DNA of 64,000 nt from IMG/VR virus record IMGVR_UViG_3300035070_003584, positions 29,032 through 93,031 of that record; one strand, written 5' to 3'. Position 1 is the first letter of the stretch; every line of letters begins with the position of its first letter. Source of the DNA: a virus. Its lineage: Duplodnaviria > Caudoviricetes. This document shows, in pieces, positions 17,820 to 63,144 of this stretch. The position numbers and the translations under genes were made by a program. The notes beneath the pieces are model-generated. The model searched no databases. It saw only the letters and a list, made by a program, of their open reading frames with translations, and had not been told where the DNA came from.

Positions 17820-18361
17820 AGCGTTATGTTTTTCTTGGTGCCATGGCGGCATCATTTTTAGGTGGTCTTGTGAGTGGTAAATCGGCATTTGGTGCAGAAG
17901 CAAATGCAGGTTTACTACACGATTCTGTATCAGAACAGAAATGTCTGGCAGATAATATATACTTTGAGGCCCGTAACCAAATACATAGGGGAATGATTGG
18001 TGTCGCTCTTGTCACTCGTAACCGTGTTCTTGATAGTCGGTTTCCTCATTCATATTGTGAGGTTGTTAAACAAGGACCTGAAAGACCATCATGGAAGCAA
18101 AATGGGACCATGGTCCCTCTTCGCCATCGCTGCCAATTTAGTTGGTATTGTGACGGCAAGTCTGATGATATTGGTTATCACGATACTGCTGTCTATGAAC
18201 TTGCTCGTGCCATCGCTTTTAAAGTCTATCACGGAGAATTTCCCGACTTCACAGATGGTGCCACTCATTATCATGCCGATTATGTTAGACCAGAATGGGC
18301 ATCAACCAAAACCAAAACAATGAAGATTGATCAACACATTTTTTATAGATGGGAAAAATAA
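17816..18361 (+). CDS. SleB/Hydrolase_2 family cell-wall hydrolase
   Basis: Signal peptide; CLADNIYFEAR, NRV, CQFSWYCDG, GATHYHA.YV.P.W, HIFY. Confidence 0.92.
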   Translation: MKRYVFLGAMAASFLGGLVSGKSAFGAEANAGLLHDSVSEQKCLADNIYFEARNQIHRGMIGVALVTRNRVLDSRFPHSYCEVVKQGPERPSWKQNGTMVPLRHRCQFSWYCDGKSDDIGYHDTAVYELARAIAFKVYHGEFPDFTDGATHYHADYVRPEWASTKTKTMKIDQHIFYRWEK

Positions 18362-18684
18362 TGCAAAGACTATTTCCAGAAGATAGTATTGAAAATATGC
18401 CAGACTTTAAATTTAATGAGGACATGTATATCGATGAGATCTCTGACTATATCATTGCGACATATAGTCAACACTACTCAAAGAACAATTTTCAAGCATC
18501 AGAGTTTATCTATGATGCTGGTCATGGTACTGGATTTAATATGGGTAATGTGATGAAGTATGCCCAGCGATATGGTAATAAGGGTACTACCGATGATCAT
18601 CGGAAGGATCTGATGAAGGTGATTCATTACGCGATTCTTCAGCTTCACGTACACGATACTTCGCAAGAAGAATTGCTTCTTTAA
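18361..18684 (+). CDS. DUF3310-like protein
   Basis: HY..GFNMGNVMKYAQRYG.K..DLMKVIHY. Confidence 0.7.
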   Translation: MQRLFPEDSIENMPDFKFNEDMYIDEISDYIIATYSQHYSKNNFQASEFIYDAGHGTGFNMGNVMKYAQRYGNKGTTDDHRKDLMKVIHYAILQLHVHDTSQEELLL

Positions 18685-18824: not shown

Positions 18825-19031
18825 TTACTTAGTTAACATACCAGCTGGGAGTGTTCTGCATTCCCAGCTTCTTGGTTTGTATCCCTTCATATGTATATGC
18901 ACATCTTCGGCCATTTGCAATGCACGGGCCTTACACACACGCTCAGATTCGTATGGTCCACGTTGATCTTCTAGCATAATGCAATAGTTTGGATTGCTCA
19001 TCAGGCATGCATATACAATTGCTTGTATCAT
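18825..19031 (-). CDS. Cys-containing hypothetical protein (MIQAIVYACL..GPY....C..RA)
   Basis: Start coupled to the stop of 19031..19510. Confidence 0.6.
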   Translation of the reverse strand: MIQAIVYACLMSNPNYCIMLEDQRGPYESERVCKARALQMAEDVHIHMKGYKPRSWECRTLPAGMLTK

Positions 19032-19510
19032 CAAACTGCCGTATACATTACAAAAATAAGTGCGGCGCCACCAAGGATGACACATCCACCAATAATCATC
19101 ATCATCTTAATCATTTCCCAGAACTCTTCATCTTCTTTTCTCTTTTGAATTCTGGCCAGTCTTTGCGCCTCTTTTGCTTCTACTATTCTTTTTTGTCTTT
19201 CATCCAAAATCTTTTGCCAAGTTCCTGGACCAAACCGCATATCAATTAGATTGCGCATCTCTTGCATCTTCTCTTCTGCAAGTTTGGCGTCAATCATTTC
19301 TTGGGCAACTGATTGGATACCGAACTGATCTTTCAGTCCCATACCGGATTTTTTGCCTCTTTTCTTCTGTACCTCTTCGGTACCTTTGAACATACCATCA
19401 ATTGCACCAGCAATTTCACCAATGTCTTTTGCGGTGTCAATATTTGATTTTATAAATTCTACACTTGCCTTTACAAGTGCAATTCCTGCTAAAATTTCTG
19501 CTACAGGCAT
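19031..19510 (-). CDS. Membrane protein with C-terminal TM helix
   Basis: 159 aa; SD upstream; RFGPGTW motif; downstream of a minus-strand late promoter. Confidence 0.75.
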   Translation of the reverse strand: MPVAEILAGIALVKASVEFIKSNIDTAKDIGEIAGAIDGMFKGTEEVQKKRGKKSGMGLKDQFGIQSVAQEMIDAKLAEEKMQEMRNLIDMRFGPGTWQKILDERQKRIVEAKEAQRLARIQKRKEDEEFWEMIKMMMIIGGCVILGGAALIFVMYTAV

Positions 19511-19579
19511 TTTGATCTTCCTTCTACTGAAGTTAGATGTATGTCACTGTTGCCATATAATTAAATTCGCTCTCACATA

Positions 19580-19587
19580 TATTTATA
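19580..19587 (-). promoter_or_regulatory. T4-type late promoter (minus strand)
   Basis: TATAAATA consensus in intergenic DNA. Confidence 0.65.
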
Positions 19588-19629
19588 TTTACAAACGTAT
19601 CTAGATGTGTTATAATATTAATATAAATA
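19588..19629 (+). promoter_or_regulatory. Tandem early and late promoters for the tmRNA
   Basis: TTTACA(19588)-N17-TATAAT(19611) and TATAAATA(19622). Confidence 0.75.
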
Positions 19630-19633
19630 AAAA

Positions 19634-19695
19634 TGATTCGGTGAAACTGGATGGATGTAGGCTGGACGTGGGGGCAGTACCCACCGCCTCCACCA
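19634..19695 (+). ncRNA. ssrA: tmRNA acceptor piece (permuted two-piece ssrA); 5' end approximate
   Basis: T-arm GTGGG-GGCAGTA-CCCAC (alphaproteobacterial T-loop), then CGCCTCC-A-CCA; TGATTC, ACTG, TGTA and CTG blocks pair with the coding piece. Confidence 0.93.
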
Positions 19696-19715
19696 TAAAC
19701 ACACTAGAGGTAAAT

Positions 19716-19841
19716 ATGTTAGAAGCATTTGCAAATTGGGTATCAAAGTTTATTAAAGTTAAACCACAACCAGGATATCTTGGTAGGGATATGGCAAAAC
19801 ACAGAGTCCATAGTGTAAAATATGAAGACCTTTGCAAGTGA
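19716..19841 (+). CDS. 41-aa ORF inside the tmRNA intervening segment
   Basis: SD GAGGT, ATG; MLEAFANWVSKFIKVKPQPGYLGRDMAKHRVHSVKYEDLCK. Confidence 0.65.
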   Translation: MLEAFANWVSKFIKVKPQPGYLGRDMAKHRVHSVKYEDLCK

Positions 19842-20071
19842 AAATAACACCAGAGAATACACCAAACAAATATGTAAGGTGGTTTTGTTGGTTCATACAA
19901 TTTAAATACGTATGGGACATTCAAACCTTATTTGAAAAATATCTTCCTATGGAGAAAGTGTATAGATTCCTAGGGTTTTATTTATTTTGGTTTATTTGGT
20001 TTTGTACACTATTACTTGTCTTATACAAGATTACTGGTAGTATGGAATTTCTTCTCTGGTTTGATGAATAG
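19838..20071 (+). CDS. 77-aa aromatic-rich membrane protein inside the tmRNA intervening segment
   Basis: GTGA overlap with upstream ORF; TM segment FLGFYLFWFIWFCTLLLVLY. Confidence 0.65.
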   Translation: MKITPENTPNKYVRWFCWFIQFKYVWDIQTLFEKYLPMEKVYRFLGFYLFWFIWFCTLLLVLYKITGSMEFLLWFDE

Positions 20072-20083
20072 TGTGCTTATGAT

Positions 20084-20225
20084 GGGGGCGAAATAGGATC
20101 GACAGATGCAAGAAGGCAGTGGAGAATCACAAACGTAAATGCAAACGATAACTTTGCTCCTGAGATGCGCCTAGCGGCATAATCTCTGGGCTGGCAACTT
20201 GCCTTGAAACAGAAAAGTTGCAACT
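20084..20225 (+). ncRNA. ssrA: tmRNA coding piece, tag ANDNFAPEMRLAA* (20141-20182); 3' end approximate
   Basis: 5' GGGGGCG pairs with CGCCTCC giving G3.U; AAATAGGATCGAC; TAAAT-GCA resume context; LAA-stop degron. Confidence 0.95.
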
Positions 20226-20242
20226 TACCCAAGGAGGGTGCT

Positions 20243-20581
20243 ATGAAATACTACCTAATAATGTTCCTTATGCTATTTGCAACATCTGCATTTGCTGAAG
20301 TAGAAACTCGTTCAAAACCAGTTCAATGTGGAGGTATAGAAGGTCTTCTTACTATCATTGATCAAGCAGAAGAAAAGGCTTTACTTGGCGCTTTAGGTGA
20401 AGTCACAATGCCTGATATGACTAAACAAATCTTGCCAATCTATGTGTTTGCAAATACAGATACAGGCACATTTACTATCTTTGAAATGCATCCCGACAGT
20501 AATGAAGTTTGCTTAATTGGTTATGGTACTAGTATTGATTTTAATGTACAGGGATATTTTGAACCTAAAACAAATAGTTAA
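20243..20581 (+). CDS. Exported hypothetical protein
   Basis: Signal peptide ..SAFA; KPVQC..C pair. Confidence 0.75.
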   Translation: MKYYLIMFLMLFATSAFAEVETRSKPVQCGGIEGLLTIIDQAEEKALLGALGEVTMPDMTKQILPIYVFANTDTGTFTIFEMHPDSNEVCLIGYGTSIDFNVQGYFEPKTNS

Positions 20582-22065
20582 TGAATCACTGCTTAATTAT
20601 GAACATCGAGGAACGAAGTCACACACGTTCTTTAGGCCCATATAGAATAGCTCATTGGCTAAGGGATAATGGGTGGGATACTGAGGTAATAGACTATTGC
20701 GCTCATTGGTCACATGACGAGTTAATGGAGTTATGTTTATCTCGAATTAATGATAATACGCGATTCATAGGATTTTCATCCTTATTTACTGGATGGACAA
20801 ATCATATGGAAATATTTTCACTTTTTCTTAAGAAACATTATCCAAATATAGTACAAATTTCCGGTTCATCTAGTCTTCCAAATGCGGATATGTCAGCAGT
20901 TGATTATCACATATATGGGTTTGGTGAAAAGGCTTTAGATGTTTTACTTAAATATCTATTCTCAAATGGTGAGGCACCCCGAGCGACAAATTATTTTAAT
21001 ACACAATTAATTGATGCATCTCATTATCCAGCATATCCACTTAAGGAATATACTGTTCTCTATGAAGAAAGAGATTATCTTCAACCATGGGAATTTCTTT
21101 CAATTGAAACCGGCAGAGGCTGTAAATTTAAATGTAGTTTCTGTAACTTTTCAGTACTTGGTGTAAAGGGAGATTATAGCACTTCACAAGATAGTTTTGA
21201 AAAACAATTAAATGAAAACTATGATAGATGGGGTATTAAAAACTATGTGATTGCCGAAGAGACATTCAATGACCGTACAGAAAAAGTTGAAAAATTTAGC
21301 CAAGTAGTACAAAGATTGAATTTTGAACCATGGTTTGCTGCATATATTAGAGCTGATTTACTTATATCTAGAAAGCATGAAGTAGAACATTTGGCTAATA
21401 TGAATGTATTCGGCCAATTTTATGGAGTTGAATCTTTTAACCAAAAAACCTCTAAAGCCATTAAAAAAGGCATGGACCGAGGTAAAATGAAAGAAGGTCT
21501 TCTTAAAGTAAAAGAATATTTTGAGAAAAACAATAATAGATATCGAGGCAATATATCTCTTATTGTAGGCGCGCCATATGAAACAAAGGAATCTTTATAT
21601 AGTTCTCTCGATTGGCTAGTTGATAACTGGAAGACCCAAAGCTTTACTGCATATCCTCTTGGAATCCCAATTTATGGAAGACAATCTATATTAAGTGGTT
21701 CTTATGGTGAAAACGAATATGAAGAAATATCAGCAGAAGAATTGTATCAAAAGCATGATAAAACATATGTCGATAAAGTATTAAAAAAGAATAACATTAT
21801 AAAAGACAATAAAATACTTGAAAAAAAATGGCTAATGTGGAAAAATAAACAAATGGATGTTGTTGAAGCATTTAAAATACATGATCATATGTGTGATGTA
21901 ATGCGAAAAGAGAAATTTAAAAAATCCACATTTGCTGTAGCAGAATTTAGTGGTAAAGAATCTACTATTGATGATAAATTAAAATTGGATGTAAATGCTG
22001 TAAAAACATTTAGAGATGAAGAATTGCAATGGGTTGAGGAATATAAAAAAAAGAAATTATCATGA
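20581..22065 (+). CDS. Radical SAM protein with a cobalamin-binding-like N-terminal domain
   Basis: ETGRGCKFKCSFC (CxxxCxxC), EETFND, YIRADL, GVESF; N-terminal LGPYRIAHWLR..G.D.EVID. Confidence 0.88.
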   Translation: MNHCLIMNIEERSHTRSLGPYRIAHWLRDNGWDTEVIDYCAHWSHDELMELCLSRINDNTRFIGFSSLFTGWTNHMEIFSLFLKKHYPNIVQISGSSSLPNADMSAVDYHIYGFGEKALDVLLKYLFSNGEAPRATNYFNTQLIDASHYPAYPLKEYTVLYEERDYLQPWEFLSIETGRGCKFKCSFCNFSVLGVKGDYSTSQDSFEKQLNENYDRWGIKNYVIAEETFNDRTEKVEKFSQVVQRLNFEPWFAAYIRADLLISRKHEVEHLANMNVFGQFYGVESFNQKTSKAIKKGMDRGKMKEGLLKVKEYFEKNNNRYRGNISLIVGAPYETKESLYSSLDWLVDNWKTQSFTAYPLGIPIYGRQSILSGSYGENEYEEISAEELYQKHDKTYVDKVLKKNNIIKDNKILEKKWLMWKNKQMDVVEAFKIHDHMCDVMRKEKFKKSTFAVAEFSGKESTIDDKLKLDVNAVKTFRDEELQWVEEYKKKKLS

Positions 22066-28877: not shown

Positions 28878-29834
28878 ATGGCACATATGGTAGAAACAAT
28901 GGCTTATGCCGGTCAGGTTCCATGGCATGGATTAGGTGTTCCTGTCTCTAATGATTTGACACCAGTTCAGATGATGCAAAAAGCTGAACTAGATTGGAAA
29001 GTCCGTGAAGTGGAATCATTTATTGAGTTCGATGGTAAAAAAATGCCAACCGGACAAAAATCATTGGTACGCGAAACCGATGGTAAAATTTTAACAAATG
29101 TTGGTGAGAATTGGAAATCTGTTCAGAACGAACAGGCCTTTGAATTCTTTCATGAGTATGTGATGGCAGGTGATATGGAAATGCACACTGCAGGTTCACT
29201 CAAGGGTGGTCAGATGGTCTGGGCTCTAGCCAAGATTAATTCTTCCATGGATTTCTTTAAGGGTGATCAGGTAGATTCATATCTGCTCTTTTCTAATCCT
29301 CACCAATATGGTAAGACGATTGACATTCGTTTTACACCAATCCGTGTTGTGTGTAATAATACACTGACACTTTCACTAGACCAAAAGACAGAACAATCAG
29401 TTCGTGTTGGCCATAGAGTAGAGTTTGATGCATCAACTGTCAAACGTGCTCTTGGCATTGCTAGTGAGAAAATGGGTGTATATGGTGAAATGGCTAAATT
29501 CCTTGGTAACAAGAGATTTACTGAGGATTCATATATCGAATACCTTAATACGGTATTTCCCCGTACTTCCGATAAGCGTGTACAGGACAAGCAGTTATCA
29601 GCTGAAACCCTATCACGTAACGCCAAGTTGGCCTATGATGTCCTTGACACACAGCCAGGCGCGGAATATGCTCGTGGTACGTGGTGGCAGGCATTTAACT
29701 CTGTCACATATATTACAGATCATGTTCAAGGTCGGAATGCCGATAATCGCCTTTATTCATCATGGTTCGGTGGTAATCAATTACGGAAACGTGATGCACT
29801 CCAAACCGCAATTGAATTTGCAGAGGCGGCGTAA
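28878..29834 (+). CDS. DUF932/DUF945-family phage/plasmid protein
   Basis: MAH.VETMAY..PWHGLG, VQN..AF.F, TAGSL.GG..VW, TPIRVVCNNTL, GTWW.AFN.VT...DH. Confidence 0.88.
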   Translation: MAHMVETMAYAGQVPWHGLGVPVSNDLTPVQMMQKAELDWKVREVESFIEFDGKKMPTGQKSLVRETDGKILTNVGENWKSVQNEQAFEFFHEYVMAGDMEMHTAGSLKGGQMVWALAKINSSMDFFKGDQVDSYLLFSNPHQYGKTIDIRFTPIRVVCNNTLTLSLDQKTEQSVRVGHRVEFDASTVKRALGIASEKMGVYGEMAKFLGNKRFTEDSYIEYLNTVFPRTSDKRVQDKQLSAETLSRNAKLAYDVLDTQPGAEYARGTWWQAFNSVTYITDHVQGRNADNRLYSSWFGGNQLRKRDALQTAIEFAEAA

Positions 29835-62908: not shown

Positions 62909-62985
62909 GGTTCCGTAGCTCAGTTGGATAGAGCAATTGCCTTCTAAGCAATGGGTCAGGGGTTCGAATCCTCTCGGAATCGCCA
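62909..62985 (+). tRNA. tRNA-Arg(UCU)
   Basis: Cloverleaf; anticodon loop CTTCTAA; GGTTCGAATCC; encoded CCA. Confidence 0.95.
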
Positions 62986-62989
62986 ATTC

Positions 62990-63062
62990 GCTCGGTTAGT
63001 TCAGTGGTTAGAACCACGTGCTCATAACGCGTTTGTCGGGGGTTCGAATCCCTCACCGAGTA
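62990..63062 (+). tRNA. tRNA with CAU anticodon (elongator Met or Ile2)
   Basis: GCTCGGT/ACCGAGT acceptor stem; loop CTCATAA; T-loop TTCGAAT; followed by CCC. Confidence 0.9.
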
Positions 63063-63069
63063 CCCTATT

Positions 63070-63144
63070 GCGGGTATAGTATAATGGCTATTACTACAGC
63101 CTTCCAAGCTGAAGATCGGAGTTCGACTCTCCGTACCCGCTCCA
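63070..63144 (+). tRNA. tRNA-Gly(UCC)
   Basis: GCGGGTA/TACCCGC, U discriminator, CCA; loop CTTCCAA. Confidence 0.95.

Follow-up and report, generated by a model that had tools for sequence, protein, structure and literature searches.

The virus record IMGVR_UViG_3300035070_003584 carries, within the stretch of 64,000 nucleotides analysed here (positions 29,032 to 93,031 of the record; hereafter the window), a gene for transfer-messenger RNA (tmRNA) in two pieces of permuted order, and the intervening sequence (IVS), a spacer of 388 nt between the two pieces, holds two small overlapping open reading frames (ORFs), designated ORF1 and ORF2. We consider it probable that this locus is an intact, circularly permuted two-piece tmRNA gene of the alpha type from an uncultured marine T4-like myophage, in which the IVS serves as a slot for small genes. 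The T4-like genes of the window and of the 93-kb virus record encode a gp43-type polymerase, UvsX, a replicative helicase, a ribonucleotide reductase and a tail fibre.

Identification of the permuted tmRNA gene

The Rfam family RF04321 (tmRNA_permuted) matched positions 19637-20182 of the window with a score of 64.5 bits (E 3.7e-10), above its gathering score of 47 and with the spacer aligned as a loop insertion, which bears out the permuted two-piece phage tmRNA proposed in an initial annotation of the window. Over 19584-20225, RF01849 (alpha_tmRNA) scored 49.2 bits and narrowly missed its gathering score of 50, a shortfall for which the 388-nt insertion accounts. The same annotation had suggested a check of the locus with ARAGORN or Infernal (alpha tmRNA model); RF04321 finds the permuted tmRNA and ARAGORN misses it, calling three tRNAs in the window and no tmRNA at 19637-20225.

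The gene begins with an acceptor piece that has a CCA end (19693-19695), continues with the IVS (19696-20083) and closes with a coding piece, which opens with the 5′ strand of the acceptor stem at G1 (20084); on re-check of the sequence, the coordinates given previously for the CCA end (19695), for GGGGGCG (20084) and for the 388-nt spacer proved exact. In the acceptor stem, GGGGGCG (20084-20090) pairs with CGCCTCC (19685-19691), placing G3 opposite U70, and a G3·U70 wobble is an identity feature of the acceptor stem of tRNA-Ala. The T-stem (GTGGG/CCCAC) and the P2 pairs between the two pieces show few non-canonical positions in the Rfam structure lines. The tag reading frame extends from GCA at 20141 to 20179, is closed by TAA at 20180-20182 and encodes ANDNFAPEMRLAA, ending in LAA. 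The ends of the spacer are complementary, as had been claimed, with 12 of 13 positions paired and one A·C mismatch between the arms CATAAACACACTA (19694-19706) and TAGTGTGCTTATG (20069-20081). When 19630-20240 was folded with RNAfold, the T-arm, the acceptor stem and the helix closed by these arms were present in both the minimum free energy structure and the centroid (-161.6 kcal/mol, z -3.03 from 20 shuffles).

A group I intron within the tmRNA was considered as an explanation of the insertion and rejected, as the insertion lies between CCA and G1 and not in the T-loop and is without an Rfam match; no intron family was found either at gathering level or at E ≤ 1. In the 93-kb record, whose completeness is about 55%, no gene for SmpB was found, and host SmpB would therefore be needed.

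Coding potential of the IVS

The details of the two-gene arrangement given in the initial annotation were confirmed, namely a Shine-Dalgarno (SD) sequence GAGGT, a 41-aa ORF (ORF1) whose TGA stop overlaps the GTG start of ORF2 (GTGA), and a 77-aa predicted membrane ORF (ORF2) with whose TAG stop the 3′ arm begins. The membrane character of ORF2 is predicted by both structure model and hydropathy; the AlphaFold model has helices at residues 11-35 and 40-66 with a mean predicted local distance difference test score of 79, and hydropathy indicates one strongly hydrophobic, transmembrane segment at about residues 44-64. The best match of this model in BFVD (Foldseek) had an E value of 4.6. Neither ORF matched a family in Pfam (E ≤ 0.1) or PHROG (E ≤ 0.01), or a GenBank phage by tblastn (E ≤ 1e-3), and their scores in the ESM Atlas (0.86 for ORF1 and 0.80 for ORF2) were under the 0.9 level, while a protein homology search with ORF1 returned six unnamed clusters.

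Coding-type conservation was found for both ORFs, with an excess of differences at third codon positions and ratios of nonsynonymous to synonymous substitution rates (dN/dS) well below 1 (about 0.02-0.26 wherever computable, by simple counting on short genes). For ORF1, the differences at first, second and third codon positions were 1/0/8 against L274 (loci found in related contigs are given L numbers), 5/2/11 against L275 (dN/dS 0.10) and 14/6/21 against L282 (dN/dS 0.12). The corresponding figures for ORF2 were 0/1/8 against L123 (dN/dS 0.02), 9/3/30 against L133 (0.04), 7/4/20 against L124 (0.06) and 21/11/39 against L150 (0.12).

ORF1 belongs to a family with 285 related viral loci, collected with a three-sequence alignment as query, and the counts and contexts given here come from the best 80 of these. 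All 80 are 35-50 aa long and end in ..HR.H[ST][TV]KYEDLC[KM] followed by a stop, a motif that the C-terminus of the ORF1 in the window (..AKHRVHSVKYEDLCK) fits. By motif search, 14 of the best 80 lie in a tmRNA IVS, three (L287-L289) stand just upstream of a tmRNA gene and 63 are without one; Rfam, run on 19 ORF1 loci that were negative by this search, with L275 as positive control, found no tmRNA in 18, the exception being L287. ORF2 has 31 related loci, 24 of which lie in a tmRNA IVS (one with the same 388-nt two-gene IVS, 23 with ORF2 alone in 260-267 nt). Three others stand directly upstream of a tmRNA gene, and the remaining four are distant copies (59-68% identical) that are ordinary genes with no tmRNA in the available flanks of at most 1.5 kb. 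As judged by these sequence comparisons, ORF1 and ORF2 are genuine genes, and neither of them is tied to tmRNA. The functional link between the cargo proteins and tmRNA processing that the initial annotation had envisaged appears somewhat weakened, since most ORF1 relatives lie away from tmRNA and ORF2 lies outside an IVS in 7 of its 31 loci.

At L130 (about 1340-1900), and also at L124 and L125, an ORF2 homologue stands just upstream of the tmRNA gene. Next to the copy at L130 lies a second copy of the 3′ end of the preceding gene, which is a homologue of the window ORF at 18349-18684, and this duplication looks like an insertion or recombination scar.

The IVS in related phages and in bacteria

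Phage relatives were collected by an exact 25-nt motif of the acceptor piece, which gave at least 120 viral contigs, and the frequencies below describe this sample and are not a census. The coding piece was located in 119 loci, i.e., the window, the locus of the Methylophilales phage Melnitz (L001) and 117 of 120 scanned contigs; the three contigs without a located coding piece were L088 (spacer of 72 nt), L101 (4 nt) and L058, which stops at the contig end. These loci gave 106 unique spacers of 3-388 nt, the spacer of the window being the longest sampled. The 104 unique phage IVSs other than those of the window and Melnitz had a median length of 95 nt, with 45 of at least 100 nt and 26 of at least 140 nt. 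For a bacterial baseline we used one genome per species and a looser motif, and a downstream coding piece was present in 111 of 120 loci. The IVSs of these 111 loci measured 3-139 nt (median 28) and typically formed a small hairpin with a TGAT or TGAC end, and those of Pelagibacteraceae were 7-12 nt long and without a stem.

ORF content was scored with a strict rule demanding an SD, a start at most 30 nt from CCA and a single ORF reaching the 3′ arm. Among the unique phage IVSs of at least 90 nt, 17 of 57 were cargo-type by this rule, as compared to 1.5 expected from shuffles of the interior, and at a length of at least 120 nt the figures were 14 of 34 and 0.5. No cargo-type ORF was found on the opposite strand of the same IVSs, so that all are co-oriented with the tmRNA (17 versus 0). 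The rule undercounts, as it misses the two-ORF family and several cases with a weak SD. Three of the 27 bacterial IVSs of at least 40 nt met the rule formally, with ORFs of 15-25 codons each that ran into the coding piece, and no IVS in the bacterial sample appears to hold a convincing ORF. In the comparison of spacer length and ORF content over related phage contigs, which had been proposed as a check, phages thus had a median of 95 nt (with 17/57 cargo-type at 90 nt or above) and bacteria a median of 28 nt.

At least ten unrelated families of small ORFs occupy the slot, namely ORF1, ORF2 and at least eight others, including a second two-ORF arrangement. Among the relatives closest to the window, whose tmRNA pieces are nearly identical, the IVS holds only ORF1, only ORF2, both genes, a remnant with ORF2 deleted or a bare hairpin, and this upholds the previously suggested role of the spacer as a cargo slot. 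In L276 and L277 the IVS of 152 nt has only ORF1, to whose 3′ end the arms are matched, and in L126-L137 and others (e.g., L126 and L133) it measures 267 nt and has only ORF2, with arms as in the window. Both genes together are found in the 388 nt of the window and of L274/L123, whereas L275 has a two-gene form of 183 nt with the same arms, in which ORF1 is intact and ORF2 is cut to its first and last few codons. The acceptor piece of the window is 100% identical to those of L274 and L277, 98% to that of L080, which has a hairpin IVS of 29 nt, and 92% to that of L126; the coding piece is 95% identical to that of L277 and 88% to that of L126, both of which encode the same tag, and the tag frame is common to the window, L126, L277, L274 and L050. 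The comparison supports the IVS as a putative cargo slot for small genes in this phage lineage. The best explanation for the two-gene form, within a reading that we hold to be likely as a whole, is that ORF1 was placed before ORF2 within an ORF2-type IVS. Turnover of the cargo would most simply proceed by recombination of co-infecting phages through the conserved flanking tmRNA pieces.

Alternatively, the two-gene insertion could have inactivated the phage tmRNA, leaving its pieces as relics. The score of the window in RF04321 (64.5 bits, versus 90-121 bits in relatives) and the missing ARAGORN call would agree with such decay. However, the lower score is the penalty for the insertion, the pieces and the tag frame are shared with the relatives at the identities given above, and the arms keep 12 of 13 pairs. 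Moreover, the 388-nt form recurs in an independent contig (L123/L274) with ORF changes nearly all at third positions, and the stretch is present in 14 DNA runs from 9 studies (counting runs with at least half of its words). A decaying gene is therefore highly improbable.

Cargo-type IVSs are AT-rich, as 16 of 36 with a guanine-plus-cytosine (GC) fraction below 0.39 but 1 of 21 at 0.39 or above were cargo-type. The GC-richer IVSs of relatives thus look non-coding, which would fit the notion that the IVS of the window is itself a structured non-coding RNA whose ORFs are open by chance and not translated. We consider this extremely improbable, since both ORFs have dN/dS well below 1 with a strong excess of third-position differences, have homologues that are ordinary genes in other contexts and are provided with SDs, and since cargo-type ORFs are all on the tmRNA strand.

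Several further observations were made on the contents of the slot. Eight other cargo peptides had no family match in Pfam or PHROG, with the exception of the cargo of L103, for which a sub-threshold match to DUF2061 was obtained (E 1.2e-3, 19.6 bits versus a cut-off of 23.1). The second two-ORF cargo, the ‘C’ family, occurs in L108, L121, L064, L076, L102, L037, L048, L055 and L082 in IVSs of 159-186 nt, and consists of a short acidic peptide (..GDSDEEP..) and an overlapping membrane peptide of 38-44 aa (..YI.WSICADI..), with dN/dS of 0.03-0.36 where computable. The 5′ arm includes the SD of this cargo, AAGGAG, the second start is enclosed in a GGGG...CCCC hairpin, and the conserved TGAT tail supplies the stop (TGA). 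The GC-richer long IVSs, e.g., L024 (140 nt, GC 0.60), L046, L026, L104 and L051, have no ORF signal and many internal complementary stretches, and may be structured non-coding RNAs that are released on processing. The 60-nt IVS of L099 is a tandem repeat in which a 22-nt unit (AATGTGCATTAGGACTACTGCC..) occurs about 2.7 times, and in L141-L143 (1-760) a cargo-bearing tmRNA gene directly follows a cluster of six tRNA genes.

The closing helix

Pairing of the spacer ends was scored over the 99 unique spacers of at least 26 nt, with position i counted from CCA, position j counted back from G1 and the register j = i+4. In this register 991 of 1089 cells were paired (91%), as compared to 34-55% in nine other registers, which demonstrates that the closing stem is conserved in relatives. 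Helix positions 2-10 were paired in 88-99 of the 99 IVSs with 3-6 pair types per position. The conserved tail TGAT was present in 84 of 99 IVSs, and C75 and A76 of the acceptor end pair with the TG of this tail in 94 and 98 of 99, respectively. The closing helix is about 11-13 bp long and continues, or stacks on, the acceptor stem.

The same helix is found in cargo-free phage IVSs and in bacteria, and is therefore part of the tmRNA precursor and not of the inserted genes. The initial annotation had regarded the stem as a clamp that keeps the tRNA-like domain foldable around a cargo slot; a conserved, covarying stem that extends the acceptor stem stands, but it is no adaptation to cargo, as bacterial and cargo-free phage IVSs share it. 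In the ORF1-only IVSs, the 5′ arm tracks the codons of the 3′ end of ORF1, which forms the 3′ arm. Those ending in ..AAG TAA TTA have the 5′ arm TAATTACTTG (CTTG), those ending in ..AAA TAA TT have TAATTATTT (TTT), and one ending in ..ATG TAA TT has AATTACATG (CATG).

An autonomous, stem-clamped ORF1 module was also considered and rejected, as no consistent inverted repeat flanks the ORF1 copies that stand free.

Transcription of the locus

The best promoter-like site within 19000-21000 is the sigma-70-type site at 19588-19616, and it is followed by the motif TATAAATA, presumably a late-promoter motif of the T4 type. No promoter-like site and no TATAAATA were found in the interior of the IVS. 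The late-promoter meaning of the motif is also given in the methods of the Melnitz paper (PMC9004378).

Assembled contigs that contain the IVS and reach 21-30 nt into the acceptor piece were found in three metatranscriptome libraries of two studies, and one contig (19666-19875) crosses the junction of ORF1 and ORF2. At the junction of IVS and G1 the best contig (20016-20100) extends 17 nt past G1, and no contig has at least 31 letters on each side. The regions 19300-19623 and beyond 20295 were uncovered in the RNA runs and are uninformative either way. The RNA libraries weakly support one transcript. Splicing was rejected as a source of the many apparent joints over 19695-20084 in the RNA runs, which are relatives with other IVSs.

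Separate promoters for the two pieces had been named in the initial annotation as a finding that would speak against its reading. In such an arrangement the acceptor piece, together with an ORF1/ORF2 mRNA, and the coding piece would be transcribed from different promoters and join in trans, with no excision of the IVS. A spacer of 388 nt has room for a promoter, and no RNA contig spans the junction of IVS and G1 with at least 31 letters on each side. On the other hand, the IVS lacks a promoter-like site (as searched by consensus matching) and TATAAATA; the covariation of the helix is understandable only when the two arms belong to one RNA or have to pair; and in close relatives whose pieces are identical the IVS is too short to hold a promoter, those of 3-30 nt being too small for a second one. 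Two transcription units are thus very unlikely.

The motif TATAAATA is also present on the minus strand at 19587, facing a divergent 159-aa ORF (19031-19510, minus strand), and the 126-nt gap between this ORF and the tmRNA gene may therefore hold promoters for both directions.

Features and neighbouring genes

The features of the locus are listed in Table 1. No terminator-like site was found in 19000-21000, and hence none between the tmRNA and the gene at 20243. Beyond the tmRNA operon, a 494-aa ORF at 20581-22065 contains CxxxCxxC, which we take to be typical of radical SAM enzymes, and had no PHROG family at E ≤ 1e-5. The three tRNA genes of the window (Arg-TCT, Met-CAT and Gly-TCC) are clustered at 62909-63144 with spacings of 5-6 nt.

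Table 1. Coordinates of the features at the tmRNA locus, as positions of the window
Feature	Position	Strand	Basis or remarks
Sigma-70-type promoter-like site	19588-19616	+	Consensus match, 11/12; TTTACA, 17-nt spacer, TATAAT, TG before -10
T4-type late-promoter-like motif TATAAATA	19622-19629	+	Just upstream of acceptor piece; sole plus-strand copy in 19301-20400
tmRNA acceptor piece	19637-19695	+	Rfam alignments; P2 3′ strand, T-arm, acceptor 3′ strand CGCCTCC (19685-19691), discriminator A (19692), CCA (19693-19695)
T-arm in acceptor piece	19668-19672, 19680-19684	+	Rfam alignment; GTGGG, loop GGCAGTA, CCCAC
Closing helix, 5′ arm TAAACACACTA	19696-19706	+	Covariation and fold; C75 and A76 (19694-19695) also pair with TG (20080-20081)
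SD of ORF1, GAGGT	19707-19711	+	Abuts 5′ arm
ORF1, 41 aa	19716-19841	+	ATG 19716, TGA 19839-19841; phage peptide family, third-position excess
ORF2, 77 aa	19838-20071	+	GTG 19838, TAG 20069-20071; predicted helical-hairpin membrane protein
Closing helix, 3′ arm TAGTGTGCTTA, then TG, then unpaired AT before G1	20069-20083	+	Covariation
tmRNA coding piece	20084-20225	+	Acceptor 5′ strand GGGGGCG (20084-20090), P2 5′ strand, tag frame; 3′ end according to RF01849 alignment
Next gene, 112 aa	20243-20581	+	Hydrophobic N-terminus, SD AAGGAGG; starts 18 nt past tmRNA 3′ end

Discussion

Here we describe a permuted phage tmRNA gene whose IVS probably acts as a slot for small genes. We propose that the ssrA precursor, transcribed from the putative promoters at 19588-19629, would also serve as the mRNA of ORF1 and ORF2, and that ORF2 would be translationally coupled to ORF1 through the GTGA overlap. 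Translation would take place mainly on nascent RNA, before the 3′ arm has been made. The helix would then form, RNase P would cut at G1 and 3′ trimming would proceed to CCA, so that the two tmRNA pieces are freed and processing ends the expression of the cargo. The interior of the IVS, enclosed within the helix, would be free to vary, making it a recombination-tolerant slot for small genes. Release or destruction of a small mRNA on maturation, as put forward in the initial annotation, would be an outcome of such processing.

Several points weigh against this proposal. The promoters at 19588-19629 are consensus matches only, the relatives come from an exact-motif sample whose frequencies are not a census, and ORF1 and ORF2 are without family or fold assignment. 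The RNA-library contigs show neither ends nor strand, may stem from DNA carry-over and, at the CCA junction, fall just under the rule of 31 letters of overlap. The order of events, in which translation comes first and folding and processing follow, is deduced from geometry.

This geometry is shared by the cargo IVSs. Their start is found 14-24 nt after CCA, with an SD that abuts the 5′ arm or is contained in it, and their stop falls either within the 3′ arm (-15 to -1 relative to G1) or past G1 (+13 to +105). Given the size of the ribosome footprint, an initiating ribosome would cover the 5′ arm and a terminating one the 3′ arm. Since the SD abuts the 5′ arm and the stop is in the 3′ arm, the formed helix and a translating ribosome would be mutually exclusive. 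We therefore speculated whether translation regulates maturation, i.e., whether ribosomes on the IVS ORFs keep the helix from closing and, once at the stop, also hold open the beginning of the acceptor stem, so that translation gates maturation and processing ends cargo expression; the locus would then be a sensor or timer tying the supply of phage tmRNA to the translation capacity of the host. The family-wide positions of starts and stops, the SD that is part of the 5′ arm in the ‘C’ family and the co-orientation of the cargo ORFs with the tmRNA all speak for such coupling. However, the same ORFs occur elsewhere without a tmRNA nearby, cargo-free IVSs with the same helix are common, genome compaction alone would also pack SD and stop against the arms, and the argument is one of sequence geometry. 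Regulatory coupling is consequently a tentative idea, considerably less likely true than false, and translation control of tmRNA maturation in general may be held with similar reserve.

An extended version, in which the IVS is a translation-gated processing switch that allows one burst of translation per precursor before folding, the RNase P cut and the release of tmRNA, and which includes non-stop tagging and the swapping of cargo by homology arms, appears rather unlikely. If it were true, the translation state of the host would determine both how much of a ribosome-rescue RNA is supplied and at what level small phage proteins are present, the phage tmRNA would tag the non-stop product of those relatives whose stops lie at +13 to +105, and the conserved tmRNA pieces would be homology arms for cargo swaps between co-infecting phages.

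Cargo stops past G1 were observed at +13 in L069, L084, L018, L044 and L006, at +42 in L057, L075, L081, L028 and L001, and at +15 to +105 in L092, L021, L071 and L025. The stop past the RNase P site is a TAG within GAAATAGG of the conserved coding piece, or comes later. Processing would therefore deprive a cargo mRNA of this kind of its stop codon and turn it into a target of tmRNA tagging.

Regarding its wider meaning, the locus illustrates that small genes within an RNA gene escape annotation, as in the Melnitz record, which has no coding sequence (CDS) over the IVS. Of 13 relatives examined (among them L080, L277, L060, L103, L126, L050, L023 and L274), ARAGORN called the tmRNA in no more than 5, and in none of the five with an IVS of at least 238 nt; it also missed the window, while RF04321 finds these genes. 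Surveys based on ARAGORN will therefore undercount permuted tmRNA genes and lose the cargo-rich ones. In its architecture, a protein-coding mRNA is enclosed by a helix of a stable-RNA precursor, a kind of nesting that we did not find described in the literature searched. In abundant marine phages, a spacer that is normally discarded but has strongly conserved sequence on either side can thereby turn into a hotspot at which genes are gained, lost and exchanged. As the arms overlap the SD region and the stop codon, the locus offers a natural system for studying the competition of translation and tRNA-type processing on one transcript. For the engineering of T4-like marine phages, the slot suggests itself as a site where insertions are tolerated and as an expression cassette that releases itself.

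The permuted ssrA of alphaproteobacteria was reportedly described by Keiler, Shapiro and Williams in 2000 and by Sharkady and Williams in 2004 as giving one precursor that is cut by tRNA-processing enzymes. The window shares with these genes the order of acceptor piece, IVS and coding piece, and many bacterial IVSs likewise have the closing stem and TGAT or TGAC. In contrast to the window, the IVSs of the 111 sampled bacterial loci are short, are simple hairpins except in Pelagibacteraceae, and lack a convincing ORF.

Two-piece tmRNAs of the alpha type have been reported for Melnitz and pelagimyophages (PMC9004378), where, as in the window, an alpha-type permuted ssrA follows an early-type promoter and forms an operon with downstream genes. 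A search of GenBank phage DNA with 19500-20300 gave as its only match a 41-nt stretch of the acceptor piece, 95% identical, in four Melnitz records. The GenBank record of Melnitz (MZ577097) has one tmRNA feature of 453 nt and no CDS across the IVS, and the part of the paper available mentions no ORF in the IVS and does not use the word ‘intervening’ (PMC9004378). A glutamine riboswitch is reported there together with the Melnitz ssrA, whereas no Rfam match to the glutamine (glnA) riboswitch at E ≤ 1 was found in 19400-20700 of the window.

The IVS of Melnitz (L001, 2535-2676), 142 nt long, was seen to have an SD, GGAGAAG, as well as the closing helix (TAAACACTT / AAGTGTTTA). Its ORF (MFKWLSK..) resembles, as a relative, the N-terminal portion of the longer members of the ORF1 family, e.g., L060, has no stop inside the IVS and runs 42 nt into the coding piece.

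Inserts in an IVS have been reported before, as the main text of the 2025 tmRNA database paper mentions one IVS that contains a gene for tRNA-Ala, and a repetitive element within the longest IVS, in a gene of 1152 bp (PMC11915505). Both cases resemble the window in that foreign inserts are tolerated, but they are RNA or repeat elements and single curiosities, and protein-coding IVS cargo is not mentioned in that main text. According to the same text, the T-loop of tmRNA and tRNA genes can be the site of group I introns, some of which carry genes for homing endonucleases (PMC11915505). As in the window, a protein gene is then nested in a segment that is removed from a tmRNA precursor. The introns differ from the window in their site (T-loop versus between CCA and G1), in self-splicing and ligation as opposed to tRNA-type end processing without ligation, and in their cargo, that of the window not being a mobility gene.

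The initial annotation knew of no description of this arrangement, and none of a coding IVS in a permuted tmRNA was met in the parts of the full-text literature searched. The gene and the logic of its processing are already known, and the stem-bounded IVS as a recurrent protein-coding slot was not found in the literature searched. In the tRNA cluster of phage T4 and the tRNA-tufB operon of E. coli, small ORFs are co-transcribed with tRNA genes, and RNase P and other enzymes separate them. The window resembles these systems in having an mRNA and a tRNA-like RNA on one transcript, and its downstream gene also follows without a terminator. Unlike in both of them, however, the mRNA of the window lies inside a single RNA gene, between its pairing halves, and the helix around it is one that the RNA on either side needs.

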